59,035 nt of DNA. Origin: Chlorobiota bacterium (GTDB taxonomy: Bacteria > Bacteroidota > Bacteroidia > Bacteroidales > Prolixibacteraceae). Under the pieces are notes generated by a model. That model saw only the letters and a list, made by a program, of their open reading frames with translations. It was not told the origin of the DNA and made no database searches. How positions within the stretch are numbered: the stretch's first letter is position 1; every line of letters starts with the position of its first letter. Below are positions 1,375 through 57,975 of this stretch, piece by piece. The stretch covers positions 1 to 59,035 of the forward strand of contig JAADGO010000079.1 of NCBI GenBank assembly GCA_013152355.1, written 5' to 3'. The position numbers and the translations under genes were made by a program.

Positions 1375-1387
1375 TTTAAACAACTTT
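1375..1387 (-). repeat. Near copy (12/13) of the dispersed intergenic 13-mer; top strand TTTAAACAACTTt
   Basis: Read directly in the gyrA-clpC divergent intergenic region. Confidence 0.5.
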
Positions 1388-1625
1388 ATATTCAAAGACC
1401 TACAAAAATAGTAAAATACTCAATTATATTACTATAATTATGAGGTGTTTGTGTGTCGTAATTCCAGAAAATATCAACATATTAACTGACATTATTGCAG
1501 AAAAAAACAGTATGTTTAATAACTTCTTCCGAAATTTAGAAATAGCCTTTTATTTTTTACGTATTTTAGTGTTTTAACTTTTAGGAATAATATTTGTTAT
1601 TTGATAAGAAAATAATTAAAACAAT

Positions 1626-4172
1626 ATGGAATCTCAATTTTCACCAAGGATAAAAGATATAATAGCGTATAGCCGAGAAGAAGCTATAAGGCTTGGAAAC
1701 GACCACATTGGACCGGAGCATTTATTCTTAGGGATACTTAGAGACGGAGAAGGGATTGCTACGGATATCCTGGAAGCCCTGGGGATAAACCTGGGTGCTT
1801 TTAAAGTAGAATTGGAAAATAAGATACGGACGGACAAAGAAATTGCCCCACGGGCCGAATTGCATTTGTTAAAATCTACTGAAAAAGCATTGAAAATAAT
1901 TTACCTTGAGGCAAGGGCTTTTAAAAGTGCTACGGCCAACAGCGGGCACCTGCTGTTATCTATCCTAAAAGATAATGAATGCCTGGTTACGCACATGCTC
2001 AACGATTATGGGGTAAACTATTACATCGTGAAGTCGCAACTCCAGGATTACAAACACATTGAGGCTAAATCGGATTTCCCCGAGCAGGATGACGATGACC
2101 CTGAAGATTCATTTACCGGAAGCCATGGCACATCGTCATCAGGCAAGGTGTCTGCAGGAAAATCTGAAACGCCGGTATTGGATAACTTTGGCATGGATAT
2201 AACCAAGCTGGCGGAGGAAAATAGCCTGGACCCGATTGTTGGCAGGGAAAAAGAAATTGAACGCCTGGCACAAATTTTAAGCCGGAGGAAAAAGAATAAC
2301 CCTATATTGATAGGCGAACCGGGAGTAGGTAAATCGGCTATTGCCGAGGGGTTGGCTTTGCGTATAGTCCATAAAAAGGTATCGCGTATTTTGTTTGACA
2401 AACGGGTGATCAGCCTTGATATAGCATCAATTGTTGCCGGCACAAAATACAGAGGGCAATTTGAAGAGCGCATGAAAGCTATCCTGAATGAATTGTCGAA
2501 GGTTTCTAATGTTATCCTCTTCATTGACGAGATACATACGATAGTTGGCGCCGGAGGTGCTACCGGCTCGCTTGATGCTGCCAATATGCTGAAGCCTGCC
2601 CTGGCAAGAGGTGAAATACAGTGCATTGGGGCTACTACCCTTGATGAATACAGGCAGCATATTGAGAAGGATGGGGCATTGGAGCGCCGCTTCCAGAAAA
2701 TAATGATCGAACCAACTTCAATAGAGGAAACAATTGAAATCCTCAATAATATAAAAATACGTTACGAAGACCACCATAACGTTGCCTATACCAAAAAGGC
2801 AATTGAAGGGTGCGTAAAACTTACAAGCCGCTACATTACCGACCGTTATTTACCCGATAAAGCCATAGATGCACTTGACGAAGCCGGTTCCAGGGTACAT
2901 ATATCAAATATTAATGTCCCGGAAAAAATTGTCGAACTCGAAGAAAAAATTGAAGCTACCAAAGTAAAAAAGATAGCTGCAGTTAAAAGCCAGAATTTTG
3001 AATTGGCGGCAAATTTCCGCGACAAAGAGAAAAACCTCCTGGTGCTCCTCGACAAAGAAAAAGAAGAATGGGAAAAAGAACTGATAAACCACCGCGAAAC
3101 TGTTGACGAGCATAAAGTTGCTGAGGTAGTTGCCATGATGTCGGGTGTCCCGGTACAGCGGATTGCACAAGCTGAAGGCAAACGCCTGATGAATATGAAG
3201 GACGACCTCAGAGGCAAGGTTATCGGACAGGACGAGGCTATTCAAAAAATCGTGAAAGCCATCCAACGTAACCGGGCCGGGTTGAAAGACCCGAACCGCC
3301 CTATCGGCTCATTTATCTTCCTGGGCCCGACAGGTGTTGGGAAAACACAGCTTGCCAAAGTACTTGCCACCTACCTGTTCGACAGCGTAGACTCATTGAT
3401 CAGGATTGATATGAGCGAGTATATGGAGAAATTTTCTGTTTCAAGGCTTGTTGGGGCTCCTCCCGGATATGTTGGGTACGAAGAAGGCGGGCAATTGACA
3501 GAAAAAGTACGCCGGAAACCATATTGCGTTGTATTGCTTGATGAAATTGAAAAAGCCCATCCCGACATGTTCCACTTGCTGCTGCAATTGTTAGACGAAG
3601 GAAGGCTTACGGATAGCCTGGGAAGGAAGATCGATTTTAAAAATACAATCATCATTATGACTTCCAATATCGGAACACGCCAATTGAAAGACTTTGGAAG
3701 AGGCGTAGGTTTCTCAACCGGAAAGCATGAGGATGATAATGAACATGCAAAATATGTTATCCAGAAGGCCCTGAAAAAGGCGTTTGCCCCTGAATTTTTA
3801 AATAGGATTGATGATGTTGTTATGTTTAATGCCCTAAGTAAGAGCGATATATATAAGATTATTGATATTGAAATAAAAGATTTGTACGACAGGGTTGAAG
3901 CATTGAATTATAAATTAAAAATATCAACTGCCGCCAAAGATTTTATTTCAGAAAAAGGGTACGACCCGCAATTTGGGGCACGCCCGTTAAAAAGGGCTAT
4001 TCAGAAATACCTGGAAGACGAAATGGCAGAGATAATAATAAATGCTTCAATAACTGAAGGCGATACAATTTCGGTCGGGCTCGATAAAAAATCTGAGAAG
4101 TTACGTATCCGGATACTTTCTTCCAAAACAAATAAACAGGTAAAGGAAAGTAACAGGAAGGAAAAAATATAA
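1626..4172 (+). CDS. clpC: ATP-dependent Clp protease ATP-binding subunit ClpC (class I Clp/Hsp100, two AAA+ modules)
   Basis: 848-aa ORF with a Clp_N repeat (IGPEHLFLGILRDGEGIA), Walker A motifs GEPGVGKSAI and GPTGVGKTQLAK, and a short UVR-like linker (QNFELAANFRDKEKNL) rather than the long ClpB coiled coil. Confidence 0.9.
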   Translation: MESQFSPRIKDIIAYSREEAIRLGNDHIGPEHLFLGILRDGEGIATDILEALGINLGAFKVELENKIRTDKEIAPRAELHLLKSTEKALKIIYLEARAFKSATANSGHLLLSILKDNECLVTHMLNDYGVNYYIVKSQLQDYKHIEAKSDFPEQDDDDPEDSFTGSHGTSSSGKVSAGKSETPVLDNFGMDITKLAEENSLDPIVGREKEIERLAQILSRRKKNNPILIGEPGVGKSAIAEGLALRIVHKKVSRILFDKRVISLDIASIVAGTKYRGQFEERMKAILNELSKVSNVILFIDEIHTIVGAGGATGSLDAANMLKPALARGEIQCIGATTLDEYRQHIEKDGALERRFQKIMIEPTSIEETIEILNNIKIRYEDHHNVAYTKKAIEGCVKLTSRYITDRYLPDKAIDALDEAGSRVHISNINVPEKIVELEEKIEATKVKKIAAVKSQNFELAANFRDKEKNLLVLLDKEKEEWEKELINHRETVDEHKVAEVVAMMSGVPVQRIAQAEGKRLMNMKDDLRGKVIGQDEAIQKIVKAIQRNRAGLKDPNRPIGSFIFLGPTGVGKTQLAKVLATYLFDSVDSLIRIDMSEYMEKFSVSRLVGAPPGYVGYEEGGQLTEKVRRKPYCVVLLDEIEKAHPDMFHLLLQLLDEGRLTDSLGRKIDFKNTIIIMTSNIGTRQLKDFGRGVGFSTGKHEDDNEHAKYVIQKALKKAFAPEFLNRIDDVVMFNALSKSDIYKIIDIEIKDLYDRVEALNYKLKISTAAKDFISEKGYDPQFGARPLKRAIQKYLEDEMAEIIINASITEGDTISVGLDKKSEKLRIRILSSKTNKQVKESNRKEKI

Positions 4173-4179
4173 CAGGAAG

Positions 4180-4206
4180 GGCCACTTTATAAGTGGCCTT
4201 TTTTAT
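4180..4206 (+). terminator. Rho-independent terminator after clpC
   Basis: Stem GGCCACTT (4180-4187), loop TAT, stem AAGTGGCC (4191-4198), then a T run (4199-4204). It starts 8 nt after the clpC stop. Confidence 0.8.
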
Positions 4207-4208
4207 TT

Positions 4209-4221
4209 GAAGTTGTTTAAA
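4209..4221 (+). repeat. Dispersed intergenic 13-mer GAAGTTGTTTAAA (exact)
   Basis: Exact 13-mer between the convergent clpC and ftsY 3' ends, directly after the terminator hairpin. Confidence 0.8.
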
Positions 4222-4235
4222 TTTAAATTGGGATT

Positions 4236-5186
4236 CTACGAAAACAATGATTCTACAAATTCCTTCCTTCGGAATATTTGCAGGTCTTCTAATTTTTCGC
4301 CAATCCCAATGTATTTCACCGGAATTTTAAATTGGTCTGAAATACCTATCACAACACCGCCTTTGGCAGTACCATCAAGTTTTGTAAGTGCAAGCGCAGT
4401 AACATCGGTAGCTTTTGTAAAGTGTTTGGCTTGTTCAAAAGCATTTTGCCCGGTCGAGCCGTCCAGGATCAACAATACCTCATGGGGCGCATCAGGTATA
4501 ACCTTTTTCATCACCGATTTTATTTTCGTCAGCTCATTCATCAGGTTGACTTTATTATGCAACCGCCCGGCAGTGTCGATTATTACCACATCTGCCCCGT
4601 TTGATTTTGCCGAGGATAGTGCATCATAAGCAACAGATGCCGGGTCGGCTCCCATTTTTTGTTTGATAATGGGCACCCCTACCCTATCAGCCCATATTTG
4701 CAACTGGTCGATTGCCGCGGCCCTGAAGGTATCGGATGCCCCTAAAACAACTTTCTTCCCTGCCTCCTTAAAATTGTAGGCTAGTTTCCCAATAGTAGTG
4801 GTCTTTCCAACACCATTGACGCCTACAACCATTATAACATAAGGCTCACCTGTTTCAGGGAATTCAAACCCTGAGGCATCTTCAGCGTTATTCTCTTTGA
4901 GTAAAGCTGCTATCTCATCTTTTAGTATCCCTTTCAATTCATTAATACCCAGGTATTTATCTTGTGATACCCTTTTCTCAATACGTTCGATTATCCTGAG
5001 GGTCGTGTCAACGCCAACGTCAGATGAAATCAATACTTCCTCCAGGTTATCAAGTACTTCATCGTCAACTTTCGATTTCCCAACAACGGCACGGCTGAGC
5101 TTTTTAAAAACACTCTCCTTTGTTTTAGACAACCCCATATCGAGGCTTTCCTTCTTGTTTTTGGTGAAATTTCCGAATAAACCCAT
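4236..5186 (-). CDS. ftsY: Signal recognition particle receptor FtsY
   Basis: 316-aa ORF with SRP-GTPase motifs GVNGVGKTTTIGKLA, DTAGRLHNK and TKLDGTAKGG. Confidence 0.9.
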   Translation of the reverse strand: MGLFGNFTKNKKESLDMGLSKTKESVFKKLSRAVVGKSKVDDEVLDNLEEVLISSDVGVDTTLRIIERIEKRVSQDKYLGINELKGILKDEIAALLKENNAEDASGFEFPETGEPYVIMVVGVNGVGKTTTIGKLAYNFKEAGKKVVLGASDTFRAAAIDQLQIWADRVGVPIIKQKMGADPASVAYDALSSAKSNGADVVIIDTAGRLHNKVNLMNELTKIKSVMKKVIPDAPHEVLLILDGSTGQNAFEQAKHFTKATDVTALALTKLDGTAKGGVVIGISDQFKIPVKYIGIGEKLEDLQIFRRKEFVESLFS

Positions 5187-5250
5187 AATTTACTGAATAG
5201 CAGGATATAAAATTATAATTTTTCTCCTTTATGTTTGTATTTTGCTATTG

Positions 5251-5284
5251 AAAAAAAAAAGCCTTCATCAAACGATGAAAGCTT
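5251..5284 (-). terminator. Rho-independent terminator of the rpmB-rpmG-DUF4295 operon
   Basis: The minus-strand RNA reads AAGCUUUCAUC-GUUU-GAUGAAGGCUU followed by 10 U (top-strand A10 at 5251-5260). This is an 11-bp stem with one G-U pair. Confidence 0.8.
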
Positions 5285-5308
5285 TCTTGAATAGACCGTA
5301 CGTTCTTA

Positions 5309-5461
5309 TTATTTTTGAAAATAATTTTTTACTTCATCATTTGGAATAATATCCTCTTTAAAAGAATAAGCACCGGTTTTTGGCGACTTTATCATTTTAA
5401 TCACTTTTGCAAAACCTTTACCAGCACCTTTTTGTAATGTCGCAACTGCTTTCTTTGCCAT
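5309..5461 (-). CDS. Small DUF4295-type protein (50 aa), third gene of the L28-L33 operon
   Basis: Below the 60-aa cutoff of the ORF track. Manual translation gives MAKKAVATLQKGAGKGFAKVIKMIKSPKTGAYSFKEDIIPNDEVKNYFQK*. It lies 10 nt downstream of rpmG, the arrangement typical of Bacteroidota. Confidence 0.7.
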   Translation of the reverse strand: MAKKAVATLQKGAGKGFAKVIKMIKSPKTGAYSFKEDIIPNDEVKNYFQK

Positions 5462-5471
5462 AACTAAAAAA

Positions 5472-5654
5472 TTATTTAATTTCTTTATGAACTGTGACCT
5501 TTTTCAGAATTGGATTATATTTTTTCAATTCCATGCGGTCGGGTGTATTTTTCCTGTTTTTAGTCGAAATATATCTTGATGTCCCCGGCATACCACTGTT
5601 TTTATGCTCTGTGCATTCTAGGATTACCTGGACCCTGTTACCTTTCTTAGCCAT
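5472..5654 (-). CDS. rpmG: 50S ribosomal protein L33
   Basis: 60-aa [24 protein letters not shown]...[21 protein letters not shown], a typical L33. Confidence 0.95.
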
Positions 5655-5666
5655 CGTTTACGATAT

Positions 5667-5909
5667 TTAATATTTATCAATATACCCTTTTCCCTTTGCG
5701 TTAGCAAGTGCCGTTTTGATCCCGTTTTTAGTTATAGTACGGATCCCGGCAGCCGATACTACCAGTGAAACCCAACGGTCTTCTTCCGGCAAATAAAATT
5801 TCTTTTTGAACAGGTTTACTTCAAACCTTCTTTTGGTCCGCCTTTTTGAATGGGATACATTGTTTCCCACCATAGCCTTTTTCCCTGTTATCTGACAAAT
5901 TCTTGACAT
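5667..5909 (-). CDS. rpmB: 50S ribosomal protein L28
   Basis: 80-aa [36 protein letters not shown], a typical L28. Confidence 0.95.
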
Positions 5910-6063
5910 CTTTCGTAAAATTTCTTTTTCAATAAATTACATGTTCTCAAAACGGTTTGCAAAATAAGTACATTTTTACTAATATATCAAGTAGTTGTAT
6001 GAATTTTTTATGGAAGTTTAAACAAACAGGTGTTAATAACATAAATTCCCCAAGCCTGAAACT

Positions 6064-6076
6064 GAAGTTGTTTAAA
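6064..6076 (+). repeat. Dispersed intergenic 13-mer GAAGTTGTTTAAA (exact)
   Basis: Exact copy in the rpmB/TetR divergent intergenic region, about 35 nt upstream of the putative TetR -33 box. Confidence 0.8.
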
Positions 6077-6111
6077 TTTCAAAGGGTATTTACTGCAAAA
6101 ATGAAAAAAAG

Positions 6112-6142
6112 TTTGACATTACTAAGTAATTGCTTAGATTTG
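6112..6142 (+). promoter_or_regulatory. Candidate Bacteroidota sigma-A promoter for the TetR gene (-33 TTTG, -7 TAgaTTTG)
   Basis: TTTG at 6112-6115 and TAGATTTG at 6135-6142, with a 19-nt spacer. The ATG lies at 6157. Confidence 0.45.
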
Positions 6143-6156
6143 TGCAAAATGTATTT

Positions 6157-6723
6157 ATGCCGAGGAATAAAGCATATAGCGAAGACATGGTACTAGAGAA
6201 AGCCATGCATGTTTTTTGGGGGAAAGGTTATGAAGCTACTTCTCTGCGCCTGCTGGAAAAAGAAATGGGTATTAACCAGTTTTCCATATATTCTTCATTT
6301 ACGAATAAAAAAAATTTGTTTCTTGAGTCGATCAGGAAATACCGTGAATATGTGAGCCAGAATGTGTATCAAAGTTTGTTGAAAGAAGATGCCGGGCTAG
6401 CTGAGTTGAAAGCTTTTTTAATGGAAAAGCGGAAAAATATAAATCTTAGGGGGTGCCTTGTTGTAAATACGGCTGCAGAGGTTGGAGCCAGGGATCAGTC
6501 AATAGCCAAAGAAGTAAACCTGTATTATGACTTTATCAGGGATATGCTGAAAAATGTTTTGCTAAATGCAAAAAAGAAAGGGGAAATCTCCCCGGATGTT
6601 GATGTTGAAGCGTATGCCAACTTTTTCCTGGGGGTTATGCAGGGGCTTTCGATAGCAGCAAAAACACTTGACGAAAGCCAAATAAAAGACTTTATATCAA
6701 TTGCATTAATGAAGGTCAAATAA
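6157..6723 (+). CDS. TetR/AcrR family transcriptional regulator
   Basis: N-terminal HTH (MVLEKAMHVFWGKGYEATSLRLLEKEMGINQFSIYSSFTNKKNLF). The ATG at 6157 is preferred over the TTG at 6130 given in the track, because the TTG lies inside the predicted promoter. Confidence 0.85.
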   Translation: MPRNKAYSEDMVLEKAMHVFWGKGYEATSLRLLEKEMGINQFSIYSSFTNKKNLFLESIRKYREYVSQNVYQSLLKEDAGLAELKAFLMEKRKNINLRGCLVVNTAAEVGARDQSIAKEVNLYYDFIRDMLKNVLLNAKKKGEISPDVDVEAYANFFLGVMQGLSIAAKTLDESQIKDFISIALMKVK

Positions 6724-6798
6724 TTTTTTTGAATGAATACTAAACGAACGCTTTGAATTAATACAATACATAAATAAACGCTGATTAAAATCAAAAAA

Positions 6799-7227
6799 AT
6801 GAAAACAAAATTATTATTGGCACTTGTTGCCGGTTTATTCTTTTTTAATCCTTCGAAAATTATGGCACAACCCGGAAATTCTGAAAGCAACCCTGACAAA
6901 CTCGTGGTACTATGGACAAGTGGCGACCCTTATGTTGCAGAACGGGTTGCCCTGATGTACACCCATGCAGCCAAAACAGCCCATTGGTTTAGCAATGTAA
7001 CCCTCATTATCTGGGGGCCTTCGGCAAAACTGGTTGCCGAAAACATTAAAATACAGGAAAAGGTAAAACAAATGCAAAACGATGGGGTGGTAATTGAAGC
7101 CTGTGTAGTTTGCGCCAATTCTTATGGGATTGCCGATAACCTGAGAGAACTCGGGTTCGATGTTAGAGGCATGGGTAAGCCACTGACTGATTACCTGAAA
7201 AGCGGTGCAAAAGTTTTAACTTTTTGA
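6799..7227 (+). CDS. DsrE/DsrF-like family protein with an N-terminal signal peptide
   Basis: 142-aa ORF. It has a signal-like N-terminus (MKTKLLLALVAGLFFFNPSKIMAQ) followed by a DsrE-like core (VVLWTSGDP...LIIWGPS...EACVVCANSYG). Confidence 0.6.
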   Translation: MKTKLLLALVAGLFFFNPSKIMAQPGNSESNPDKLVVLWTSGDPYVAERVALMYTHAAKTAHWFSNVTLIIWGPSAKLVAENIKIQEKVKQMQNDGVVIEACVVCANSYGIADNLRELGFDVRGMGKPLTDYLKSGAKVLTF

Positions 7228-8109
7228 GGCTTCTTGCAACAGGCTTTTATAATAGCTATTCAGCCAGCTGCTGCCGGAGAGGTACCCTAATTTTTCAAGG
7301 AAAAGCTCTGTTTTACGCAGAGTTTTTTTAAAATACTTTGGGTTTTTATTAAAATTAAAAAATCCATGCACCTGGTTTTTATAACCCACCAATTTGCATT
7401 TATTGCCGAATTGTTTCATAATGCTTTTAAACCGTACAACATTTTCATACGGAACTGTTGTATCGTCCTTGCCATGCATAATTAAAGTAGGCGGAATGCC
7501 CTTTTTAATGTGGTGGACAGGGGATATCTCGAACTCACGGCCCTTAAGTTTTTCTTGCCCATAGCCCCTTTTCCCTGTATCTACAACCGGGTTAAACAGT
7601 ATTAGGGCATTAGGTACCGGAGAAACAGCCATATTGTCGCTACTTTCGTTAACCGTTTCAATAGTGGCAGTACAAGCCGCCAGGTGCCCCCCGGCCGAAC
7701 CTCCGGCTGCAACTATTTTATTTTTATCGACACCCAGCTCATTTGCATTTTCCCTGATATAACGCATGGCCGAGTTCGCATCTTTTACGCATTCAAACGG
7801 CGATGTATTATGCCTGCTTTTAACACGGTAGTCAACGCAAAAAGCAACCATACCCCTTGATGCTAAATACCTTGCCTGCAATTCGAAATGTTTGATGGTG
7901 CCACGTACCCAGCCTCCCCCAAAGAAAAAAACAATAGCCGGCAATTTAGCATTGCCTTGAAACGAAGGGCGGTAAACCTCCATCGTCAACTTAACCGTAT
8001 CAACTTGTTTATATACAAATGATTGGGTCTCCACTTCATAATGCTGGGCACTAACTCTTGTAAATAAGGCAATGAATGCCAATAATAAAAGCACCTGTGT
8101 CTTTCTCAT
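7216..8109 (-). CDS. Secreted alpha/beta-hydrolase (esterase/lipase, fold-3 type)
   Basis: Signal peptide, oxyanion-hole-like FFFGGGW and nucleophile elbow GGSAGGHLA (GxSxG). A distal HG is present in the C-terminal part. Confidence 0.8.
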   Translation of the reverse strand: MRKTQVLLLLAFIALFTRVSAQHYEVETQSFVYKQVDTVKLTMEVYRPSFQGNAKLPAIVFFFGGGWVRGTIKHFELQARYLASRGMVAFCVDYRVKSRHNTSPFECVKDANSAMRYIRENANELGVDKNKIVAAGGSAGGHLAACTATIETVNESSDNMAVSPVPNALILFNPVVDTGKRGYGQEKLKGREFEISPVHHIKKGIPPTLIMHGKDDTTVPYENVVRFKSIMKQFGNKCKLVGYKNQVHGFFNFNKNPKYFKKTLRKTELFLEKLGYLSGSSWLNSYYKSLLQEASKS

Positions 8110-8362
8110 TGTAACTCGCTGTTAGTCTATAGTTTAATTATCAGGTGGCATAAATAACCACGCCCTAAAAATAGTAAATTATAATTTATTACCCCATTAA
8201 TATCAACCAACCATCAATTCAGAGGCTGTTTTATTTTGAAGCTGTTAAAAAAATATTGCAGGTGCAAATGTGTTTGTAATAAAATATGTGTAATCAGCAC
8301 CAACAGCCATTATTTTCACAAGGAGTTACTATATTTACTCCGCAAAATTAAAAACGCAGATT

Positions 8363-14027: not shown

Positions 14028-14097
14028 CATTTTCTGATTTCATTTCAAATATAGGCCAAAGAAAAACGAAAAACAATTGAATAGTTTCCGTTTTTAC

Positions 14098-14110
14098 TTT
14101 AAACAACTTC
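14098..14110 (-). repeat. Dispersed intergenic 13-mer (top strand TTTAAACAACTTC, exact)
   Basis: Exact copy in the pepP/cytidylate-kinase-like divergent intergenic region. Confidence 0.8.
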
Positions 14111-18636: not shown

Positions 18637-18649
18637 TTCAAACAACTTC
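18637..18649 (-). repeat. Near copy (12/13) of the dispersed 13-mer; top strand TTcAAACAACTTC
   Basis: Read directly between the MFS transporter start and the stop of the M49-like gene. Confidence 0.5.
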
Positions 18650-20539: not shown

Positions 20540-21406
20540 TTATAAATTCATATTCCGGTTGCAGGCATCCAACAACTTCTGTGCATTTTTATTCGATGCA
20601 TCAAGTGCTTTAGCTTTCTTCAATACTTCGGCAGCTTTTTTAAATTCAGCCTTAGCTTTTTCCACTTCAGCAGCATAAGCAGCAGCATCTGTTTTTAAAG
20701 CCCCTTCGCTTACCTTCTTATTAGCTACATTCAAAATTTCAACGCCTTGTTTGTATAAGCTGTTGCCTTCAGATACATATAATTTTGCAAGTGCAGACCT
20801 GATTTTACTGTCAGAAGGGAATTTTTCCGCACCTTCAATCAATGTTTGCTTGTACTCATCGTCTTTATTCATTTTTTTCAAAACAACCGCTTTGTAGTAC
20901 AGTGCATTTGCCGCTTTATAACCGGCATCTACCGCTTTTTGGAATAAAACGGCAGCCTTATCATAAATTTTACCTTTATAAGCAGCAATTGCCGCATTAT
21001 AAAAAAGGCTTTTCCCCCCACTTTTGTCGGTTTCGATAGCCTTCTCATAACTTGCAACAGCATTTTTGTACTGCTTTAGTTTTGTATAAGCATTAGCTAT
21101 AAATTCGTGCGACTTAGATATATTGGCGGATGCTTCAATAGCTTTGTTGAAATACTCAATCGCCTCTTGATACTTATTCGCCTGGTAAGCCGCAAAACCA
21201 ACATTATAATTAATTGACGCATCAACCTCAACATCGCCTAAATTATTTAATGCCGATTTGTACAACTCAAACGCTTTTGCATATTCTTTGTTTTTTAAAG
21301 CATCGTTTGCATCGTTAATTTTTTGTGCCGCATCCTGTGCCGATAATGTAAAAACCGACATTACCAGGACACAAATAGCCAAAATCTTTTTCATACCTAA
21401 CTCCAT
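20540..21406 (-). CDS. Secreted tetratricopeptide-repeat protein
   Basis: Repeated TPR-like Y..A...Y.KA motifs. The signal peptide MKKILAICVLVMSVFTLSAQD suggests the true start is the internal ATG at 21394. Confidence 0.8.
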   Translation of the reverse strand: MELGMKKILAICVLVMSVFTLSAQDAAQKINDANDALKNKEYAKAFELYKSALNNLGDVEVDASINYNVGFAAYQANKYQEAIEYFNKAIEASANISKSHEFIANAYTKLKQYKNAVASYEKAIETDKSGGKSLFYNAAIAAYKGKIYDKAAVLFQKAVDAGYKAANALYYKAVVLKKMNKDDEYKQTLIEGAEKFPSDSKIRSALAKLYVSEGNSLYKQGVEILNVANKKVSEGALKTDAAAYAAEVEKAKAEFKKAAEVLKKAKALDASNKNAQKLLDACNRNMNL

Positions 21407-21554: not shown

Positions 21555-21567
21555 GAAGTTGTTTAAA
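21555..21567 (+). repeat. Dispersed intergenic 13-mer GAAGTTGTTTAAA (exact)
   Basis: Exact copy between the TPR gene start and the stop of the small TPR gene. Confidence 0.8.
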
Positions 21568-21603
21568 GTCTAAATCACCTTTATTTGCATTGAATATACC
21601 TGC

Positions 21604-25817: not shown

Positions 25818-25931
25818 AATCTTGTTTTTTTATGCCCGTTCAAAAATAGGAAATATTGAATAAAATTAAAACTTTGAAACAAACAATATTGGTATAATAT
25901 TTTAGCTTTAAACTTCAGCCGGCAGGGCCGG

Positions 25932-36720: not shown

Positions 36721-36733
36721 TTTAAATAACTTC
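36721..36733 (-). repeat. Near copy (12/13) of the dispersed 13-mer; top strand TTTAAAtAACTTC
   Basis: It lies 17 nt upstream of the fnlA ATG. The extended match TTTTAAAyAACTTCATAAT is shared with 57962-57980. Confidence 0.5.
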
Positions 36734-36749: not shown

Positions 36750-37760
36750 ATGGATAATAAGACAATTTTAATTACTGGCGGGACAGGTTCTTTTGGGAAT
36801 GCTGTGTTGAGAAGGTTTTTAAAGACCAGTATAAAAGAGATACGGATTTTCAGCCGCGATGAAAAGAAACAGGACGATATGCGTTTGTTGTACAAAAATG
36901 ATAAAATCAAATTCTATATCGGCGATGTACGCGACAGGTTAAGTGTTGACAGTGCTATGAAAGGTGTCGATTATATTTTTCATGCGGCAGCATTAAAACA
37001 GGTGCCATCGTGTGAGTTTTTCCCTGTTGAAGCAGTTAAAACCAATGTACTCGGAGCAGAAAATGTAATTGATTCGGCAATCGCCAATGGCATAAAAAAA
37101 TTAATAGTCCTCAGCACCGATAAAGCAGTATACCCTATAAATGCAATGGGGCTGTCGAAAGCACTGATGGAAAAGGTAATGATTGCCAAATCGCGTAACC
37201 TGAATGGCGGCGGGCCTATGCTTTGTGGCACCCGTTACGGAAATGTTATGGCATCGCGTGGTTCGGTAATCCCCCTCTTTACCAACCAAATAAAAAAGGG
37301 GAACCCTATTACTATTACCGACCCGAACATGACCCGCTTTATGATGACCCTTGAAGATGCTGTAGAACTGGTAATGTTTGCATTTGACAATGCCACCCAT
37401 GGCGATATTTTTGTCCAAAAGGCTCCGGCTGCCACAATCGAAGTACTTGCCCTGGCATTAAAAGAGCTGTACCATTCGGGTTCGGAAATTAAAATAATTG
37501 GGACAAGGCATGGCGAAAAATTATATGAAACACTGGTCAACCGTGAAGAAATTGCACGGGCCGACGACTTAGGGGATTATTTTAGGATTAGTGCCGATAC
37601 GCGCGACCTTAACTATGCAAAATATTTTAGCGAAGGGAAATCGAATATTTCTTCACTGGTAGATTATACCTCACACAATACCGAAAGGCTGGATGTAGAA
37701 GGGATGAAGAAATTATTATTAAAATTGGATTTCATTAAAAATGATTTGCCTAACTTGTAG
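36750..37760 (+). CDS. fnlA: UDP-GlcNAc 4,6-dehydratase/5-epimerase (FnlA/CapE/WbjB)
   Basis: 336-aa ORF. ILITGGTGSFGNAVLRRFL, IRIFSRDEKKQDDMR, FHAAALKQVPSCEFFPVEAVKTNVLG and CGTRYGNVMASRGSVIPLF are near-identical to CapE/FnlA signatures. Confidence 0.9.
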   Translation: MDNKTILITGGTGSFGNAVLRRFLKTSIKEIRIFSRDEKKQDDMRLLYKNDKIKFYIGDVRDRLSVDSAMKGVDYIFHAAALKQVPSCEFFPVEAVKTNVLGAENVIDSAIANGIKKLIVLSTDKAVYPINAMGLSKALMEKVMIAKSRNLNGGGPMLCGTRYGNVMASRGSVIPLFTNQIKKGNPITITDPNMTRFMMTLEDAVELVMFAFDNATHGDIFVQKAPAATIEVLALALKELYHSGSEIKIIGTRHGEKLYETLVNREEIARADDLGDYFRISADTRDLNYAKYFSEGKSNISSLVDYTSHNTERLDVEGMKKLLLKLDFIKNDLPNL

Positions 37761-52068: not shown

Positions 52069-52097
52069 TCATTCAATAATATAAAAATATCAAACCA

Positions 52098-53078
52098 GTG
52101 AACACACAAAAATTCTCAGAAGATATCCTTGTTATCAAAGATATCGAATCGGAAGTGGATTCGGTAACAAGGAAATTAAAGGAAGGCATATTAACAGTCC
52201 TTAGGCGGAAGGGTGCCATTATTGGCATTAGCGGTGGGATTGATTCATCGGTAACACTGGCTTTAGCTGTAAAGGCTTTAGGCCCCGAACGGGTAATAGG
52301 GGTAATGCTCCCCGAAAAGGACTCAAGTGAAGACAGCAAGCTATTGGCCCAGGGCCTGGCACAAAAATTTGGAGTTCAAACAATTGAAGAAGATATAACA
52401 AAAGCCCTTGACGGGTTTGGGTGTTACAATCGCAGAGACGAGGCTGTAGCCGCGGTATTCCCCGAGTACAACCCTGCCGAATACAAAATGAAGATAGGTG
52501 TTAGCCAAAAGGGGATCAACCAAAACCTCCCTCCTCTTTTTTCACTGACGATTGTCGATAAAAATGGGCAGGGGAAAAGTAAACTACTCCCATTAAAGGA
52601 ATACCTGCAGATTGTAGCAGCATCTAACTTTAAGCAGCGATGCCGTATGTCGATGCTTTATTACCATGCCGAACGGATGCATTATGCAGTAGTTGGCACA
52701 CCAAACAAGCACGAAGTAGAACAAGGTTTTTTTGTGAAGCATGGGGATGGCGGTGCCGATATAATGCCTATTGCCCATTTATATAAATCCCAGGTTTACC
52801 AGATGGCTGATTACCTGGGGATCCCCGGGGAGATTATCGAACGTACCCCAACCACCGATACGTATTCAGCCGAGCAAACCCAGGAAGAGTTTTTCTTCCA
52901 GTTGCCCTTCAACGAAATGGATATGATCTGGTATGGGTATGAGAATGGTTATGAACCTGCTGAAATAGCCAGGGTATTGAAGATGGGAGAGGATGAAATT
53001 AAATCGGCCTATAAGAATTTCAACCGTAAACAGAAAACAACTGAATACCTTAGAATGCCACCTATTAAAGATTTTTAA
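52098..53078 (+). CDS. NadE-like PP-loop ATP pyrophosphatase (NAD+ synthetase family, single domain, with an internal insertion)
   Basis: 326-aa ORF with a GTG start. It carries the PP-loop GISGGIDSS and a NadE-like C-terminal half (NFKQRCRMSMLYYHAE...VVGTPNKHEVEQGFFVKHGDGGADIMPI..LYKSQVY). An extra segment of about 45 aa (EYKMKIG...LPLKEY) is present. Confidence 0.7.
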   Translation: MNTQKFSEDILVIKDIESEVDSVTRKLKEGILTVLRRKGAIIGISGGIDSSVTLALAVKALGPERVIGVMLPEKDSSEDSKLLAQGLAQKFGVQTIEEDITKALDGFGCYNRRDEAVAAVFPEYNPAEYKMKIGVSQKGINQNLPPLFSLTIVDKNGQGKSKLLPLKEYLQIVAASNFKQRCRMSMLYYHAERMHYAVVGTPNKHEVEQGFFVKHGDGGADIMPIAHLYKSQVYQMADYLGIPGEIIERTPTTDTYSAEQTQEEFFFQLPFNEMDMIWYGYENGYEPAEIARVLKMGEDEIKSAYKNFNRKQKTTEYLRMPPIKDF

Positions 53079-53089
53079 ATAGTATCCAG

Positions 53090-54655
53090 ATGATTCAAAT
53101 ACCTCAACGTTTACTGGGAGAAGCATTGTTGCGTTCGGCCGGGAAGAACCCGTCAAAGGCAGCAATAATCTTTAAAGGCAAGGAATATTCATATTCCCTA
53201 CTGAAAGAAAGCTCTGAGAAACTTGCCTGCCATATTGCCGCTGCCGGGATAAAAAAGGGAGACCGGGTAGCTATTTATATGAATAATTCATGGCAATGCA
53301 TTGTTTCAATATACGGGGCTATTTTAGCAGGTGCTGTTTTCCTTGTTATCAACCCGCAAACAAAAGCAAAAAAATTACAATATATTTTAAATGATAGCGG
53401 TGCAAAGGTGCTGATCTCAGAAATCCTGCTTAAACAGGAGTTCTCTAATGCTTTAGAAGGCACAGAATCTGTCAGGGAAGTCATCATTACCGGTGTAACA
53501 GGTGAAATCATTCAAAAGCCGGATTACAATTTGTCGGCTTTTGAGACTATTATCCAGGGCAATTGCACCAATGCGGGCCTTCCGGATATCATTCCCAACG
53601 ACCTTGCTGCTTTGATATATACTTCGGGCAGCACGGGGTTTCCAAAAGGGGTTATGATGACACACCAATCAATGGTTTTTATTTCGTGGAGCCTTATACA
53701 GTATTTAAGGCTGACAGAAGATGAGCGTATAATGTTGCTTTTGCCACTGGCATTTGATTACGGGCTATACCAGCTATTTATGGCAATAACTGTGGGAGGT
53801 ACGCTAATTGTTGAGCAATCATTCACATTCCCTGCCACCATATACAATCATATTGAGCAATTCAAGCCAACCGTATTTCCGGCAGTACCTACTATTTACG
53901 CAATGATGATAGCCTCCAACAAAGAAACAGGGATTTCATTCGACAGCATAAAAAAAATAACAAATACTGCCGCAGCATTGCCGGCAGAGGTTATTCCCGA
54001 CTTAAAAAAATTATTCCCCAATGCACTGATTTTTAAGATGTATGGATTAACAGAATGCAAAAGGGTTTGCTACCTCGAACCTGAACTGATTGATTTAAAA
54101 CCGGCATCTGTTGGCAAAGCAATCCCCGGCACCGAGGTATTCCTCTTATCACCCGAAGGAGGGCCGGTGCCAACAGGCAAACCGGGGATTTTACATATCC
54201 GTGGGCCTCACGTTATGGCGGGGTATTGGAATAACCATAAAGCAACAGCGGAGATGCTTAAACCGGGCAAGATCCCCGGCGAAAGAATACTATGTTCCAA
54301 CGACTGGTTTAAAATGGACGAAGAGGGATTCCTGTATTTCCAGGGGAGGAATGATGATATTATTAAAACCAGGGGGGAGAAAGTAAGCCCGATTGAGATT
54401 GAAAATATTATTTATAAAGTAAAAGGCATAAAAGAGGTGGCAGTAATTGGTGTCAGGGATAATATCCTGGGGGAATCAATAGCGGCTTTTGTTACTACCC
54501 ATGATTATGCGCAACCGGACGAGAAAGTAATTCAAAAACAATGTATAACCCACCTGGAACTGTTTATGGTTCCTCAAAAAATTATTTTTTTAAAAGAAAT
54601 GCCCAAAAGCACAAACGGGAAAATTGATAAGAAAGAATTGTATAACTACCTCTAA
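53090..54655 (+). CDS. Adenylate-forming enzyme (AMP-binding superfamily; acyl/aminoacyl-carrier ligase, DltA-like role)
   Basis: 521-aa ORF with core motifs LIYTSGSTGFPKGV, YGLTE, WFKMDEEGFLYFQGRNDDIIKTRGEKVSPIEIE and STNGKIDKKEL. Confidence 0.85.
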   Translation: MIQIPQRLLGEALLRSAGKNPSKAAIIFKGKEYSYSLLKESSEKLACHIAAAGIKKGDRVAIYMNNSWQCIVSIYGAILAGAVFLVINPQTKAKKLQYILNDSGAKVLISEILLKQEFSNALEGTESVREVIITGVTGEIIQKPDYNLSAFETIIQGNCTNAGLPDIIPNDLAALIYTSGSTGFPKGVMMTHQSMVFISWSLIQYLRLTEDERIMLLLPLAFDYGLYQLFMAITVGGTLIVEQSFTFPATIYNHIEQFKPTVFPAVPTIYAMMIASNKETGISFDSIKKITNTAAALPAEVIPDLKKLFPNALIFKMYGLTECKRVCYLEPELIDLKPASVGKAIPGTEVFLLSPEGGPVPTGKPGILHIRGPHVMAGYWNNHKATAEMLKPGKIPGERILCSNDWFKMDEEGFLYFQGRNDDIIKTRGEKVSPIEIENIIYKVKGIKEVAVIGVRDNILGESIAAFVTTHDYAQPDEKVIQKQCITHLELFMVPQKIIFLKEMPKSTNGKIDKKELYNYL

Positions 54656-54659
54656 AACT

Positions 54660-55559
54660 ATGTTTAAAGAAGAAATTTTCAACAAAATAAAAGGTGGCCT
54701 GGCAACAAAACTCCAGCTTCCTGAAGATAAACCGGAAGAAACCATAGACTCTAATTTAAAAGCACTTTGGTTTACTGCTGCCGGGCAACCCAAGTCGGCC
54801 GAAAAAGCTGCCGGATTGCCACTCCCTGACATAACAGAACAGCAGATAAAAGTATTTCACCAACTAGTTGAAAAAAGGCTAAATAATACACCGCTTGCCT
54901 ACATTACAGGGCGGCAATGTTTTATGGATATTGAATTATTAGCTGACAACAGGGCATTAATCCCCAGGAAAGAAACCGAAATATTAGGCAGGAAAGCTGT
55001 AGACGTATGCACCCGGGCAGCCCTGTTAAAACAAGAAGTCAAGGTTATTGATGTCTGCTGTGGAGCCGGGAACCTGGCATTAGCCCTGGCGCATTATACC
55101 CCGGCTACTATTGTTAATGCAAGCGACCTGTCACAAGAAGCAGTTGACCTTACACAGGAGAATATTGCTAAATTAAACTTCGGGCACCGTGTACAGGTTA
55201 CACAGGGCGATTTATTCTCGGCTTTTGAAACAGACGGGTTTTATGAGAAAACAGATTTGATTGTTTGCAACCCTCCATATATTTCAAGTGCGAAAGTTGG
55301 GAAGATACATGCCGAGATTTCAGCAAACGAGCCCACTTTAGCTTTTGATGGGGGTATGTTAGGGATAAACCTAATTCAAAACCTGATCAGGGAAGCTTCG
55401 AAATTTTTAACAAAAACAGGATGGTTATTGTTTGAGGTTGGAGTCGGGCAAGGTAGGTTTATTATGAATATATGCGAAAACATGCAGGAATACGATAAAA
55501 TTGAATCAGTATCCGATAATTTAGGCAATATCAGGGTGATATGCGCAAGGAAGAAATAA
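54660..55559 (+). CDS. HemK/PrmC-like N5-glutamine (amide-N) methyltransferase homolog with an NPPY motif
   Basis: PLAYITGRQCFMDIELLADNRALIPRKETE, SAM motif VIDVCCGAGNLAL, and catalytic VCNPPYISS. The ATG at 54660 lies 4 nt after the ligase stop, whereas the track's TTG start at 54624 would overlap the ligase. Confidence 0.75.
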   Translation: MFKEEIFNKIKGGLATKLQLPEDKPEETIDSNLKALWFTAAGQPKSAEKAAGLPLPDITEQQIKVFHQLVEKRLNNTPLAYITGRQCFMDIELLADNRALIPRKETEILGRKAVDVCTRAALLKQEVKVIDVCCGAGNLALALAHYTPATIVNASDLSQEAVDLTQENIAKLNFGHRVQVTQGDLFSAFETDGFYEKTDLIVCNPPYISSAKVGKIHAEISANEPTLAFDGGMLGINLIQNLIREASKFLTKTGWLLFEVGVGQGRFIMNICENMQEYDKIESVSDNLGNIRVICARKK

Positions 55560-55626
55560 CCTTCCAAAAATAGATTTCAAACAGCTTTTAAGACTATTTT
55601 TATAAATTATTTCTTTTGAAATTCTT

Positions 55627-57069
55627 ATGTTGCCTTATTTATTATATTACCTTATTTTTTTAACAGTTGTATCCCTGCTCTATTACTCTGTAAATAAAAA
55701 GTGCAGGCATTATGTGCTATTTGCGGCAAGCCTGCTGTTTATCGCCGGCTTTTCATTGCCGGTAGCGTTATTTTCCTTAGCACTTACAACGTTAAACTAT
55801 TTCCTGGGGCTTCTGCTTGACAGGTTTAAAGATAGGCCAGCCCTTAAAAGCAAAGTATTCTGGCTGGGCATTGTAGCCGATGTGGGGATTCTTGCATTCT
55901 TCAAGTATATCAATATATTCTTTGAAAATATTAATGCGCCCATTTCGTTAACGATTTTTGACGTTAAAATGCCATATTTAACGTTGCTCATACCTTTAGG
56001 GATTTCCTATTATACATTCCAGGCTCTTGGGTATTTGATACTGATAAACAGGGGAAGTGAACAAGCTGAAAGAAATTATGCACGGTTTGCAACCTTCCTG
56101 TTATTTTTCCCAAAATTCCTTTCGGGGCCTGTAGAGCGTTCGGGGCATTTCTTCCCACAAATAAAAAACCCTGGTGTTTTCGACCGGGACAAAGCCGCCA
56201 GTGGTTTAAGGTTGTTATTGTGGGGGGCATTCAAGAAAATCGTTATTGCCAATAATCTTTATGGGCCTGTCTCAAATGTTTATAATGATATTTATAGTTA
56301 TACCGGGGCCTCGCTGATTATTGTTTTATTTATCCAGGTCATATACATCTATTTTGATTTTTCAGGGTACACAGATATGGCTTTAGGCTCTGCAAAAATC
56401 TTTGGGATTGACCTGGTTGATAATTTCAAACGCCCATTCCTGGCTAAAAATGTATCAGAATTCTGGAAACGGTGGCACATCTCATTATCTTCGTGGTGCA
56501 ATGATTTTATTTTTATCCCTTTCATTGTCAAATTCAGGAGGTGGGGGAATACGGCTGCTGTTGCAGGAATATTTTTAACCTTTTTCATTATTGGGGTCTG
56601 GCATGGTGCAAACCTGACATTTGTTGTGCTGGGGATACTTCAGGGCATAGCTGTTGTATATGAGTTTTATACAAAAAAGATAAGGTTTAATATAGCTGCC
56701 AGGCTTCCCAAATATATGGTAAATACATTAGGCCGTTTTTTTGTTTTCTTATTCATGGCCGTATCTATGGTGTTCTTTTACGCCAATTCTTTGACTGAAG
56801 CCTTATACTTCATATCCCATTTATTTTCAGATATAAAATCAGGGATAAATGTGCATGGGCTTATTGCTAACAGTCCGGCATTCCTCCTGGCCCTTGCATG
56901 TTTTATTTTGTTATTTATTGTGGAAATGCTCAATGAAAAAGGAAAAGATATAATGTCATTTTATATGAAACAACCACTGTGGGTCCGTTGGGCGGGTTAC
57001 TTTATTGCTATTGCCCTTATCTATTTTTCGGGCACCGGAATCGAATCATTCTATTATATGAGGTTTTAA
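55627..57069 (+). CDS. MBOAT family membrane O-acyltransferase (DltB/AlgI-like)
   Basis: 480-aa polytopic ORF. FWKRWHISLSSW and the invariant-His region IIGVWHGAN are typical of MBOAT. Confidence 0.85.
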   Translation: MLPYLLYYLIFLTVVSLLYYSVNKKCRHYVLFAASLLFIAGFSLPVALFSLALTTLNYFLGLLLDRFKDRPALKSKVFWLGIVADVGILAFFKYINIFFENINAPISLTIFDVKMPYLTLLIPLGISYYTFQALGYLILINRGSEQAERNYARFATFLLFFPKFLSGPVERSGHFFPQIKNPGVFDRDKAASGLRLLLWGAFKKIVIANNLYGPVSNVYNDIYSYTGASLIIVLFIQVIYIYFDFSGYTDMALGSAKIFGIDLVDNFKRPFLAKNVSEFWKRWHISLSSWCNDFIFIPFIVKFRRWGNTAAVAGIFLTFFIIGVWHGANLTFVVLGILQGIAVVYEFYTKKIRFNIAARLPKYMVNTLGRFFVFLFMAVSMVFFYANSLTEALYFISHLFSDIKSGINVHGLIANSPAFLLALACFILLFIVEMLNEKGKDIMSFYMKQPLWVRWAGYFIAIALIYFSGTGIESFYYMRF

Positions 57070-57077
57070 ACAACTTC
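57065..57077 (-). repeat. Dispersed 13-mer (top strand TTTAAACAACTTC, exact), overlapping the MBOAT stop codon
   Basis: Exact copy; the TAA stop (57067-57069) lies inside it. Confidence 0.8.
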
Positions 57078-57104
57078 TATAGTAACACTATAAAATTAAC
57101 AGCT

Positions 57105-57944
57105 ATGAATATTTTAAAAACAAGTTTTTTTATTTCTATTGCAATTATAACTGCAATAATAATATTTCAATGTTCAAAAAACAATGCCTCCTCTACCGGC
57201 AAAGAGTGCAAGATCCTTTTCTTACACCACAGTACCGGTGCAATAATTTACAAAGGGGGAAGCAGTGGTATCCTTGCTCAACAGGAAGTCCCCAAATGGT
57301 TTAATAATTACAACAAAAAGAATGGTACTTCATACAAAATAACTGAACAGGAATTCCCCAAAAGCCAACCGTACGGATGGAACAACTACCCTTATGATTA
57401 TTATAATATTTGGGTGAAACATGCTGGAAACCAGCCATATCTTGAAGAACCGACACTGGAAATGCTGACGAAGGAGTATAATGTCATAATCTTTAAACAT
57501 TGTTTCCCGGGTAGTAATATACTGGAAGATTTGGATAATGCCGATATTGATTCGCCGGAGAAACGGCTGGGAAACTACAAACTTCAATACCAGGCTTTAA
57601 AACAGAAATTAACCCAATTCCCGGAGGTAAAGTTTATTGTATGGACCGGTGCGGCACTGATCGAAGCACAAACAACCCCGGAAAATGCTGCCCGGGCAAG
57701 AGAATTTTCCGAATGGGTTAAGAATGAGTGGGATACAGACGGCGATAATATTTACGTATGGGACTTCCGCGAACTTGAAACAGAAGGCGGGCTATACCTC
57801 AAGAAGGAATATGCCAGCTCGTCAGGCGATTCGCACCCGGGGAAGGATTTTGCAAAAACTGTAGCCCCGCTACTTTGCCAAAGGATTGTAGATGTGATTG
57901 AGAATAATGGGGCGAAAACAACTCTGACAGGCAAGCCACTTTAA
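57105..57944 (+). CDS. Exported/lipoprotein partner of the MBOAT (occupies the DltD/AlgJ/AlgX position; fold unassigned)
   Basis: The start is set at MNILKTSFFISIAIITAIIIFQCSKNN (signal plus lipobox-like Cys). The track's 56979 start would overlap the MBOAT by 91 nt. LFLHHSTG and SSGDSHPG are loosely reminiscent of SGNH blocks I and V but do not match exactly. Confidence 0.6.
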   Translation: MNILKTSFFISIAIITAIIIFQCSKNNASSTGKECKILFLHHSTGAIIYKGGSSGILAQQEVPKWFNNYNKKNGTSYKITEQEFPKSQPYGWNNYPYDYYNIWVKHAGNQPYLEEPTLEMLTKEYNVIIFKHCFPGSNILEDLDNADIDSPEKRLGNYKLQYQALKQKLTQFPEVKFIVWTGAALIEAQTTPENAARAREFSEWVKNEWDTDGDNIYVWDFRELETEGGLYLKKEYASSSGDSHPGKDFAKTVAPLLCQRIVDVIENNGAKTTLTGKPL

Positions 57945-57945
57945 C

Positions 57946-57975
57946 TTTAAACAACTTCTAATTTTAAACAACTTC
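57946..57975 (-). repeat. Two tandem exact copies of the dispersed 13-mer (57946-57958 and 57963-57975)
   Basis: Top strand TTTAAACAACTTC-taat-TTTAAACAACTTC, starting 2 nt after the stop at 57944. Confidence 0.85.

Follow-up and report, generated by a model that had tools for sequence, protein, structure and literature searches.

A dispersed intergenic 13-mer in a Prolixibacteraceae contig as the TIR tip of an IS5-family element and its MITEs

Why should one 13-mer, GAAGTTGTTTAAA, recur between the genes of a Prolixibacteraceae contig? In the window, by which we mean the whole stretch of 59,035 nt that was analyzed, seven exact copies are found (4209+, 6064+, 14098-, 21555+, 57065-, 57946- and 57963-), against 0.01 expected from dinucleotide shuffles, and none of 100 shuffles got to seven. 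Three more copies differ at one position (1375, 18637 and 36721, all on the minus strand). All ten of these good copies are noncoding or overlap a stop codon, in a window with a coding fraction of ~87%, and neither their orientation nor their distance to genes is constant; those at 57946 and 57963 lie in tandem, separated by 4 nt. An earlier, sequence-only reading had listed the same copies, the strands of the exact ones, the tandem pair, the placement outside coding sequence and an enrichment beyond chance, and on all these points our analysis agrees with it. As to what the motif is, we consider it very probable that GAAGTTGTTTAAA is the outer tip of the TIR of an ISBf6-like, IS5-family IS and of its MITEs, and that the copies in the window are leftovers of such elements, referred to here as stubs.

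The window was scanned without gaps using the 15-mer GAAGTTGTTTAAAGT, with the reversed sequence serving as control. At up to two mismatches, 10 sites were found, compared with none in the control, and at three mismatches, 13 compared with 3. One two-mismatch match is intragenic (13660) and probably due to chance. The looser relatives that had been listed at 25908, 28211, 46524 and 55574 fared less well: by inspection these sites contain indels, which a gap-free scan does not permit, and none is among the 13 three-mismatch matches, so that they are not demonstrable above chance by this test. Three copies had also been said to extend to ACTGAAGTTGTTTAAA; this holds for the exact copies at 6064 and 21555, the third being the one-mismatch copy at 18637. 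A search for longer repeats in the window yielded only 23-31-nt extensions of the motif and no full element, and neither internal MITE sequence nor transposase is present in the window. Each window copy comprises 13-30 nt of a single end, with no inverted partner at any site (Table 1). The seven stubs with the exact 13-mer, accompanied by few clearly degenerate copies, form a tidier set than a simple neutral decay series. Several other readings of the window were tried and rejected. Distant inverted stubs (e.g. 4209+/14098- and 21555+/36721-), considered as a composite transposon, lack matching 3-bp flanks. Nor do the stubs look like promoters: their distance from starts is 16-240 nt, both orientations are represented, and the TTG/TAnnTTTG geometry is not matched. 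A replication origin at the strand switch near 28 kb was considered as well, and DnaA boxes are not enriched; a tRNA scan of the window found none.

Table 1. Coordinates of the stubs and of one empty target site in the window.
Feature	Coordinates	Strand	Remarks
Single-end stub, ~26 nt, left-type TIR	1362..1387	-	Core 13-mer with one mismatch, AAAGTTGTTTAAA
Single-end stub, ~24 nt	4209..4232	+	Between clpC-like terminator hairpin and ftsY stop
Empty target site TAC/GTA	4237..4239	.	Window uninterrupted, TTTTCGTAGAATCCC; L001 has a 164-bp MITE here
Single-end stub	6064..6093	+	13 exact bases, then ~17 nt like the right-type TIR arm
Degenerate stub, two mismatches	8238..8250	+	GAAGCTGTTAAAA
Single-end stub, 15 exact bases	14096..14110	-	Divergent pepP / cytidylate-kinase-like intergenic region
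Single-end stub, one mismatch	18637..18649	-	GAAGTTGTTTGAA; one minus-strand gene on either side
Single-end stub, 16 exact bases	21555..21570	+	
Single-end stub, one mismatch	36721..36733	-	GAAGTTATTTAAA; ATG at 36750 begins 16 nt downstream
Single-end stub	57065..57077	-	Includes TAA stop of MBOAT gene 55627-57069
Single-end stub, 23 nt	57936..57958	-	Identical to right-type TIR; includes stop of gene 57105-57944
Second stub copy	57959..57975	-	17-nt tandem duplication, window-specific

Full elements are found in L001, a relative ~97% identical to the window, which has three (164, 168 and 179 bp). These start with GAAGTTGTTTAAAGT and end with ACTTTAAACAACTTC, with the 13-mer at both tips of a palindrome, and are flanked by 3-bp target duplications (GTA, ATA and ATT). 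Folded as DNA, the MITE gives a strong hairpin of -37.5 kcal/mol (z = -8). Two of the three L001 insertions have their counterpart sites within the window, which is without both. Filled and empty sites can be compared directly at window positions 4237-4239, filled in L001, and at site 1375, filled in L001 and empty in L117. As expected of MITEs, the L001 elements are noncoding, shorter than ~500 bp and bounded by TIRs. The window's own copies are not complete, two-ended elements and do not count as MITEs themselves; they are pieces of MITEs or ISs. With only short single-end stubs in the window, the finding is therefore real but ordinary. High-copy repeats tend to interrupt the contigs of MAGs, which makes full elements less likely to be found in one of 59 kb.

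The same ends are found well beyond this lineage. An exact scan of species-representative genomes with the 15-mer returned at least 114 tiles, and among the matches listed, most tiles are Bacteroidota, from many orders. Of 92 Bacteroidota ends among these matches, 39 are in MITE-size inverted pairs and 4 in IS-size pairs, and the length of the inverted pairs peaks at 160-180 bp. Some 30 further Bacteroidota pairs among the matches listed, mostly of 138-230 bp and with strong hairpin folds, are also noncoding, TIR-bounded and below ~500 bp. The 27 non-Bacteroidota matches listed include no pairs and 19 lie inside long ORFs, and we therefore attribute them to chance. The 3-bp target duplication is constant, being seen in L001 and in at least 15 copies in different genomes, with ATT the commonest outside L001. 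The family has a 15-nt tip conserved phylum-wide, a modal length of ~163 bp and unrelated internal sequences. Single ends make up all ten window copies; elsewhere in Bacteroidota, among the matches listed, pairs predominate.

An IS5-family DDE transposase is encoded by elements of 885-916 bp that are bounded by the same 15-mer and show the same 3-bp duplication; transposase homologues adjoin the 15-mer at 9 loci. One example, from a genome other than that of the window, is a 916-bp IS in L056 (6548-7463) with an ATT duplication, encoding DUF4096 and DDE_Tnp_1, whose ends have the same 16-19 nt as the MITE tips. The L056 element encodes the DDE transposase of IS5 type by which the IS5 family is recognized: Pfam matches are PF01609 (2.3e-12) and PF13340 (1.2e-13), and the best NCBIfam match is NF033580 (transpos_IS5_3), for which the split ORFs score 68.5 and 51.5 bits against a whole-protein cut-off of 110. 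A Bernardetia IS5 element has the ends GAAcTTGTTTAAG and a TTT duplication. The nearest named IS is ISBf6 of Bacteroides fragilis, known from nimE plasmids. Its DDE part shows 49% amino-acid identity, and its tip, GAAGTGATTTAAACTT, agrees with GAAGTTGTTTAAAGTT in 13 positions out of 16. ISBf6 is likewise a short (~0.9 kb), two-ORF IS5 element with DUF4096 and DDE_Tnp_1. It differs in that the copy examined shows no direct repeat, whereas the L056 element has a 3-bp duplication, and ISBf6 is a full IS, whereas the window has end fragments only. The IS/MITE family itself appears to be undescribed and unannotated so far. Searching a plasmid collection with the MITE (blastn) gave no match, and literature strings matching the 13-mer (both strands), an overlapping 14-mer or the ISBf6 tip were unrelated primers only. 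The 13-mer is thus no free-standing signal but the tip of an IS5-family TIR, the kind of IS terminus or longer repeat that the sequence-only reading had set against its own proposal. That reading was right to see a dispersed repetitive extragenic element; the mechanisms it offered (host-factor site, REP-like element, processing or termination signal) are unsupported.

These elements suggest how the stubs may have arisen. The autonomous IS is an element of ~0.9 kb with DUF4096 and DDE ORFs and a TIR of ~16-25 bp in which GAAGTTGTTTAAA is outermost, and the same TIR ends non-autonomous, palindromic MITEs of ~160-180 bp, widespread in Bacteroidota. The predicted transposase would recognize two inverted ends and insert with a 3-bp duplication, oftenest at ATT and mainly in AT-rich intergenic DNA. 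Insertions within genes would be purged, which would explain why the copies, whichever way they point, are confined to intergenic DNA and stop codons. A stub is then most likely what remains once most of the palindrome and the other end have been deleted and, having one end only, it would not transpose. One stub (57946) was later duplicated locally.

Orthologous sites in relatives were reached via homologous proteins and their encoding contigs, and the comparison covers the stubs at 1375, 4209, 6064, 8238, 14098, 57065, 57946 and 57963; for the product of gene 20540-21406, an exact-protein look-up found no identical protein on record. Site 1375 is empty in the outgroup L117 (CTTTGAATATTAAAAATATTT), while L001 has the full 168-bp MITE with its ATA duplication. 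In the window and L002, all that is left of the element is ~26 nt from the start of the left TIR, joined to the flank at ATTGAAAA/ATTAAAAA. As the outgroup is empty and L001 full, the stub of ~26 nt in the window is a deletion remnant; its junction resembles a microhomology deletion. At 8238, L117 and L118 have an oppositely oriented end, AAAGTTGTTTAAAATTAAACTGC, at the same intergenic spot, and this orientation suggests that two lineages have retained different ends of one old element. A deletion origin is thus supported directly at one site (1375) and suggested at one more (8238); we infer that all window stubs arose by deletion and that they are functionless. The 4209 13-mer is exact in the window, L001, L002, L117 and L118, with variable bases on either side, which leaves some room for weak selection or gene conversion there. 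In L001, the 164-bp MITE (3676-3839, GTA on both flanks) lies 18 nt from this shared stub, and its first G completes the ftsY stop codon. The 6064 stub sits in a 66-nt segment that is present in the window and L001 and missing from L117 and L118. At 14098, the L118 copy has one mismatch (GAAGTTATTTAAA) and adjacent indels. The 57065 stub is identical in L123, L124 and L125. The two copies at 57946/57963 correspond to one in L124 and L125 and to a degraded copy in L123, which is 99% identical overall to the window.

Conservation in related genomes had been proposed as a check on the motif. The main idea of the sequence-only reading was that a host factor, such as a global regulator or nucleoid protein, binds the 13-mer in DNA or RNA, or that the 13-mer signals processing or termination; selection would then keep it in intergenic DNA. 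We consider this very unlikely. Such a site would account for strictly noncoding copies, for the exactness of seven of them and for the unchanged 4209 copy in five related genomes despite its variable neighbors. However, the stubs differ between genomes that are 92-99% identical, some being missing, some degraded and some duplicated, and no copies are found in 21 kb around ftsY of each of two 86-87% relatives, which have the same conserved genes; this variability and absence argue against a host regulatory site. The sequence, moreover, is that of transposable-element ends with target duplications and empty sites. Nor do the window copies keep the conserved orthologous positions and fixed gene geometry of a regulatory motif, as they point either way and stand at varying distances from starts, stops and terminators, and Rfam has no family for the window (gathering thresholds) or for ten MITE-bearing loci (E<=0.1). 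We see hardly any likelihood in a REP/BIME-type element mobilized by a RAYT tyrosine transposase, or in a DNA-uptake sequence. REPs and BIMEs are likewise short, abundant, extragenic repeats, and dispersal in both orientations would suit either reading. But REPs are individual imperfect palindromes, moved by a Y1 enzyme with no target duplication, whereas the 13-mer is neither palindromic nor self-complementary, is flanked by 3-bp duplications and is the TIR tip of a DDE (IS5) element. Uptake sequences are also frequent in genes and common to close relatives, whereas none of the ten copies is coding and the copies are lineage-restricted.

The stubs might instead be landing pads, where a lone end, once occupied by transposase, guides new insertions to ~30 nt from its tip, and nested insertion followed by composite excision could itself make stubs. 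The L001 MITE beyond the 4209 stub fits this layout (31 nt start-to-start, direct orientation), as do two unrelated genomes (29 nt in L004 and 32 nt in L013), and the window stubs, at 13-30 nt, are under that distance. Yet there are only three cases and no statistics, insertions favor AT-rich intergenic DNA in any event, the tandem pair in the window is a simple 17-nt duplication and the 1375 junction looks like a deletion at microhomology, and we thus consider this reading unlikely. A broader version, in which lone ends capture transposase and steer insertions to ~30 nt, as the 29-32-nt spacing of the three independent cases would have it, nested insertion and excision regularly make stubs, and some (4209) are maintained, is slightly less improbable, though still unlikely; stubs such as 4209 might be maintained for a landing-pad role or for host use. 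Deletion remnants of IS and MITE ends remain our preferred reading.

Remnants of this kind have precedents. In Porphyromonas gingivalis, both TIRs are intact in only 4 of 19 BrickBuilt copies (PMC4596501). The MITEs of that species (BrickBuilt, MITE464/PgRS and MITE239/700) are, as here, non-autonomous, have TIRs that match resident IS5-family elements and include many copies with one intact TIR only. They differ in their TIRs (GAGACC... and ACGTCA...), in size and internal repeats, and in having variable target duplications where ours are a regular 3 bp. Correia (CREE) and ATR elements of Neisseria are hairpin-forming and polymorphic between strains. Their history is parallel, as what had first been seen as a short dispersed repeat turned out to be the TIR of an intergenic MITE of 100-155 bp, although phylum, TIR and target duplication (TA) are different. 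In Correia ends, promoters and IHF sites have also been documented, and RNase III acts on these ends, with no equivalent shown for the present stubs.

A candidate regulatory motif is in this way explained away as transposon debris. The stubs mark past and ongoing insertion sites in this Prolixibacteraceae lineage, and insertions supply or rebuild stop codons, as for ftsY in L001 and for two polysaccharide-locus genes in the window. In Bacteroidota MAGs, the IS/MITE family is likely to make contigs break, and a model of it would help annotation and strain typing.

Exact matching found seven copies of GAAGTTGTTTAAA in the window, where dinucleotide-preserving shuffles lead one to expect 0.01; all seven lie at the positions and on the strands given by the sequence-only reading, and the enrichment beyond chance that it claimed is thus real and was rightly observed. 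When the longer form GAAGTTGTTTAAAGT was used in a gap-free scan, 10 sites were found at two mismatches or fewer as against none in a reversed-sequence control, and 13 as against 3 at three mismatches. The four looser relatives that had also been proposed, near 25908, 28211, 46524 and 55574, contain indels on inspection and, as none of them is among these 13 matches, are inseparable from chance in the gap-free test. About 87% of the window is coding by a greedy ORF map, and each of the 10 good copies either lies outside coding sequence or overlaps a stop codon, in agreement with the placement described before; some overlap a stop because those of two genes in the polysaccharide locus (55627-57069 and 57105-57944) fall inside sequence derived from a terminal inverted repeat (TIR).

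By its Pfam content the window is ordinary chromosome: a ClpB/C-type ATPase, FtsY, RelA/SpoT and peptidases come first, and the long polysaccharide-synthesis locus after them. This single-strand polysaccharide/lipid-modification locus encodes glycosyltransferases, Wzx/Wza/Wzc-like export, MBOAT, ACP, AMP-ligase and asparagine-synthase-like proteins. The 940-bp gene-free, AT-rich region before it (~35% GC) marks the change from minus-strand to plus-strand genes and coincides with the minimum of the cumulative GC skew; it shows no enrichment of DnaA boxes and probably controls the locus from upstream. The window FtsY is 84-86% identical to FtsY of Sunxiuqinia, Mariniphaga and Maribellus, and by its relatives the organism belongs to Prolixibacteraceae (Marinilabiliales, Bacteroidota). 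Protein P0001 (449 aa, encoded on a 26.6-kb contig) outscores the query's own 316-aa sequence against FtsY, 757 versus 668 bits, and may be an FtsY with an N-terminal extension or a fusion partner.

An identical FtsY protein is encoded on two further MAG contigs, and identity to the window is 99.6% for L002 and ~97% for L001 (L-numbers denote loci of other genomes compared with the window). L001 holds eight copies of the 13-mer, six of which are the paired, inverted ends of three elements (164, 168 and 179 bp). These elements are mutually 84-90% identical and fold as long imperfect palindromes (-37.5 kcal/mol as DNA, z = -8); direct repeats of 3 bp (GTA, ATA and ATT) lie on either side of them, as in miniature non-autonomous derivatives (MITEs) of an insertion sequence (IS). 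For two of the three, the window includes the corresponding site but not the element. At window 4237-4239, TTTTCGTAGAATCCC runs uninterrupted where the L001 element lies between two GTA copies; the ftsY stop codon was the target of this MITE (L001 3674-3676, window 4236-4238), whose first G restores TAG. The 1375 site is empty in the more distant L117 (92-95% identical), which reads CTTTGAATATTAAAAATATTT, and is cleanly filled in L001, with ATA duplicated, while all that the window and L002 have is AAAGTTGTTTAAAGTTAAATTGAAAA, ~26 nt from the tip of the left end. The remnant joins the flank at a point where the TIR sequence ATTGAAAA is similar to ATTAAAAA of the flank; the simplest reading is one insertion followed by microhomology deletion in the window's lineage. 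Transposition of the element duplicates 3 bp of target, and it is still going on, or was until recently, in a sister lineage.

By BLAST, the L001 elements match the window by their first or last 13-25 nt only, with no internal MITE sequence, and tblastn with the transposase of a full element (L056, see below) found none in the window. Every window copy is a one-ended fragment of an IS or MITE, or stub, and these vary among close relatives, as collected in the table. The differences at 8238 suggest that two lineages may have retained different ends of one old element. No copy occurs in the 21 kb compared from each of two relatives with 86-87% FtsY identity. A patch of ~60 nt between a 279-aa gene and the acyl-carrier-protein gene differs from L123 by indels and many substitutions in genomes otherwise 99.2% identical, which suggests local recombination or rapid turnover. 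It should be noted that high-copy repeats exceeding the assembler's k-mer tend to be missing from a MAG contig such as this one of 59 kb, and full elements may therefore exist elsewhere in the genome.

Copies of the 13-mer in the window, with other features of the window and of compared loci
Sequence	Position (strand)	Match to GAAGTTGTTTAAA	Observation
Window	1375 (-)	one mismatch
Window	4209 (+)	exact	unchanged in every relative compared
Window	6064 (+)	exact	within 66-nt segment missing from L117 and L118
Window	8238 (+)	degenerate	good copy in opposite orientation in L117 and L118
Window	14098 (-)	exact	one mismatch in L118
Window	18637 (-)	one mismatch
Window	21555 (+)	exact
Window	36721 (-)	one mismatch
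Window	57065 (-)	exact	unchanged in every relative compared
Window	57946/57963 (-)	exact	tandem pair, 17-nt duplication private to window; single copy in L124 and L125, degraded in L123
Window	27528-28467		gene-free region
Window	28468-58293		polysaccharide/lipid-modification locus
Window/L123	57936-58000/9920-9960		divergent patch
L056	6548-7463		916-bp IS
L081	4598-4666		69-bp mini-element
L001	3827-3870		two adjacent ends
L004	5711-5752		two adjacent ends
L013	2503-2547		two adjacent ends

The L056 element has the same ends, an ATT duplication and two overlapping ORFs, with PF13340 (DUF4096) and PF01609 (DDE_Tnp_1), for which transpos_IS5_3 is the best NCBIfam model. Homologues of its transposase lie directly inside the 15-mer at nine loci (tblastn), several of them broken off at contig ends, as repeats are expected to break MAG assemblies. 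In the plasmid collection the closest element with a name is ISBf6, beside nimE in Bacteroides fragilis (49% identity), whose ends read GAAGTGATTTAAACTT; a Bernardetia IS5 element has ends GAAcTTGTTTAAG and a TTT duplication.

Searching one genome per species for exact matches to GAAGTTGTTTAAAGT gave at least 114 tiles, most of them from Bacteroidota of many orders; the matches listed include Bacteroidales, Marinilabiliales, Lentimicrobiaceae, Saprospiraceae, Chitinophagales, Flavobacteriales and Cytophagales. An end was scored as lone only where at least 1.4 kb was searched. Among the matches listed, the 92 Bacteroidota ends comprise 39 in MITE-size inverted pairs, 4 in IS-size and 3 in other pairs, 20 lone ends (9 in long ORFs) and 26 near a tile or contig edge, left unclassified. 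The 27 ends from outside Bacteroidota, among the same matches, include none in pairs of any class, 21 lone and 6 left unclassified near an edge; these look like chance, as 19 of the 27 fall in long ORFs. Pair lengths among the matches listed cluster tightly at 160-180 bp (mode ~163), internal sequence differs from genome to genome despite this constant length, and at least 15 copies, taken from different genomes, show a 3-bp duplication, most commonly ATT. MITEs of different orders (L015, L020, L028, L032, L053, L073, L074, L084, L098, L099, L104 and others) have only their ~15-nt tips in common, yet keep a length of 160-165 bp and the hairpin fold; several carry a TGAAAATCAG-like box ~45-55 nt from one end. 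The mini-element of L081, a Prolixibacteraceae MAG, joins a 16-nt tip to ~53 nt of the opposite arm of an L001-type MITE and by its sequence appears to be an internal-deletion derivative retaining both ends.

The ends shared by the L001 elements, the Bacteroidota pairs, the L056 IS, ISBf6 and the Bernardetia element show that the 13-mer is the conserved TIR tip of IS5-family elements of an ISBf6-like branch and of the MITEs that descend from them. A host binding, processing or termination signal, as proposed from the sequence at first, is disfavoured, since the copies are polymorphic among relatives, their geometry relative to genes is not conserved and their sequence is identical to a transposon end. 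The REP-like element also suggested then, in the form of a REP/RAYT system, and a DNA-uptake sequence both fail, as the defining features of either are lacking here. A minor proposal, compatible with IS/MITE debris, is that lone ends attract new insertions. In three unrelated genomes (L001, L004 and L013) a second end lies in direct orientation 29-32 nt, start to start, from the first, and in L001 the first demonstrably pre-existed as the stub shared with the window at 4209. This spacing may indicate end-targeted insertion, although three cases are too few for a statistic.

Returning to IS/MITE debris, genic insertions would be purged and, together with a preference for AT-rich targets, this would leave copies in intergenic positions only, while deletion of the unstable palindrome would leave stubs. 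Evidence for such an origin by deletion is direct at one site and suggestive at one more; the seven exact tips, with the unchanging copy at 4209, form a neater set than simple decay would give. Porphyromonas gingivalis has IS5-derived MITEs with different TIRs, most copies of which, as in the window, have one intact TIR left (PMC4596501). The present sequence has no entry in Rfam and was not found in the searchable literature, and this particular IS/MITE family seems undescribed. The enrichment is explained by an already known kind of element, and the stubs that it left would be without function.
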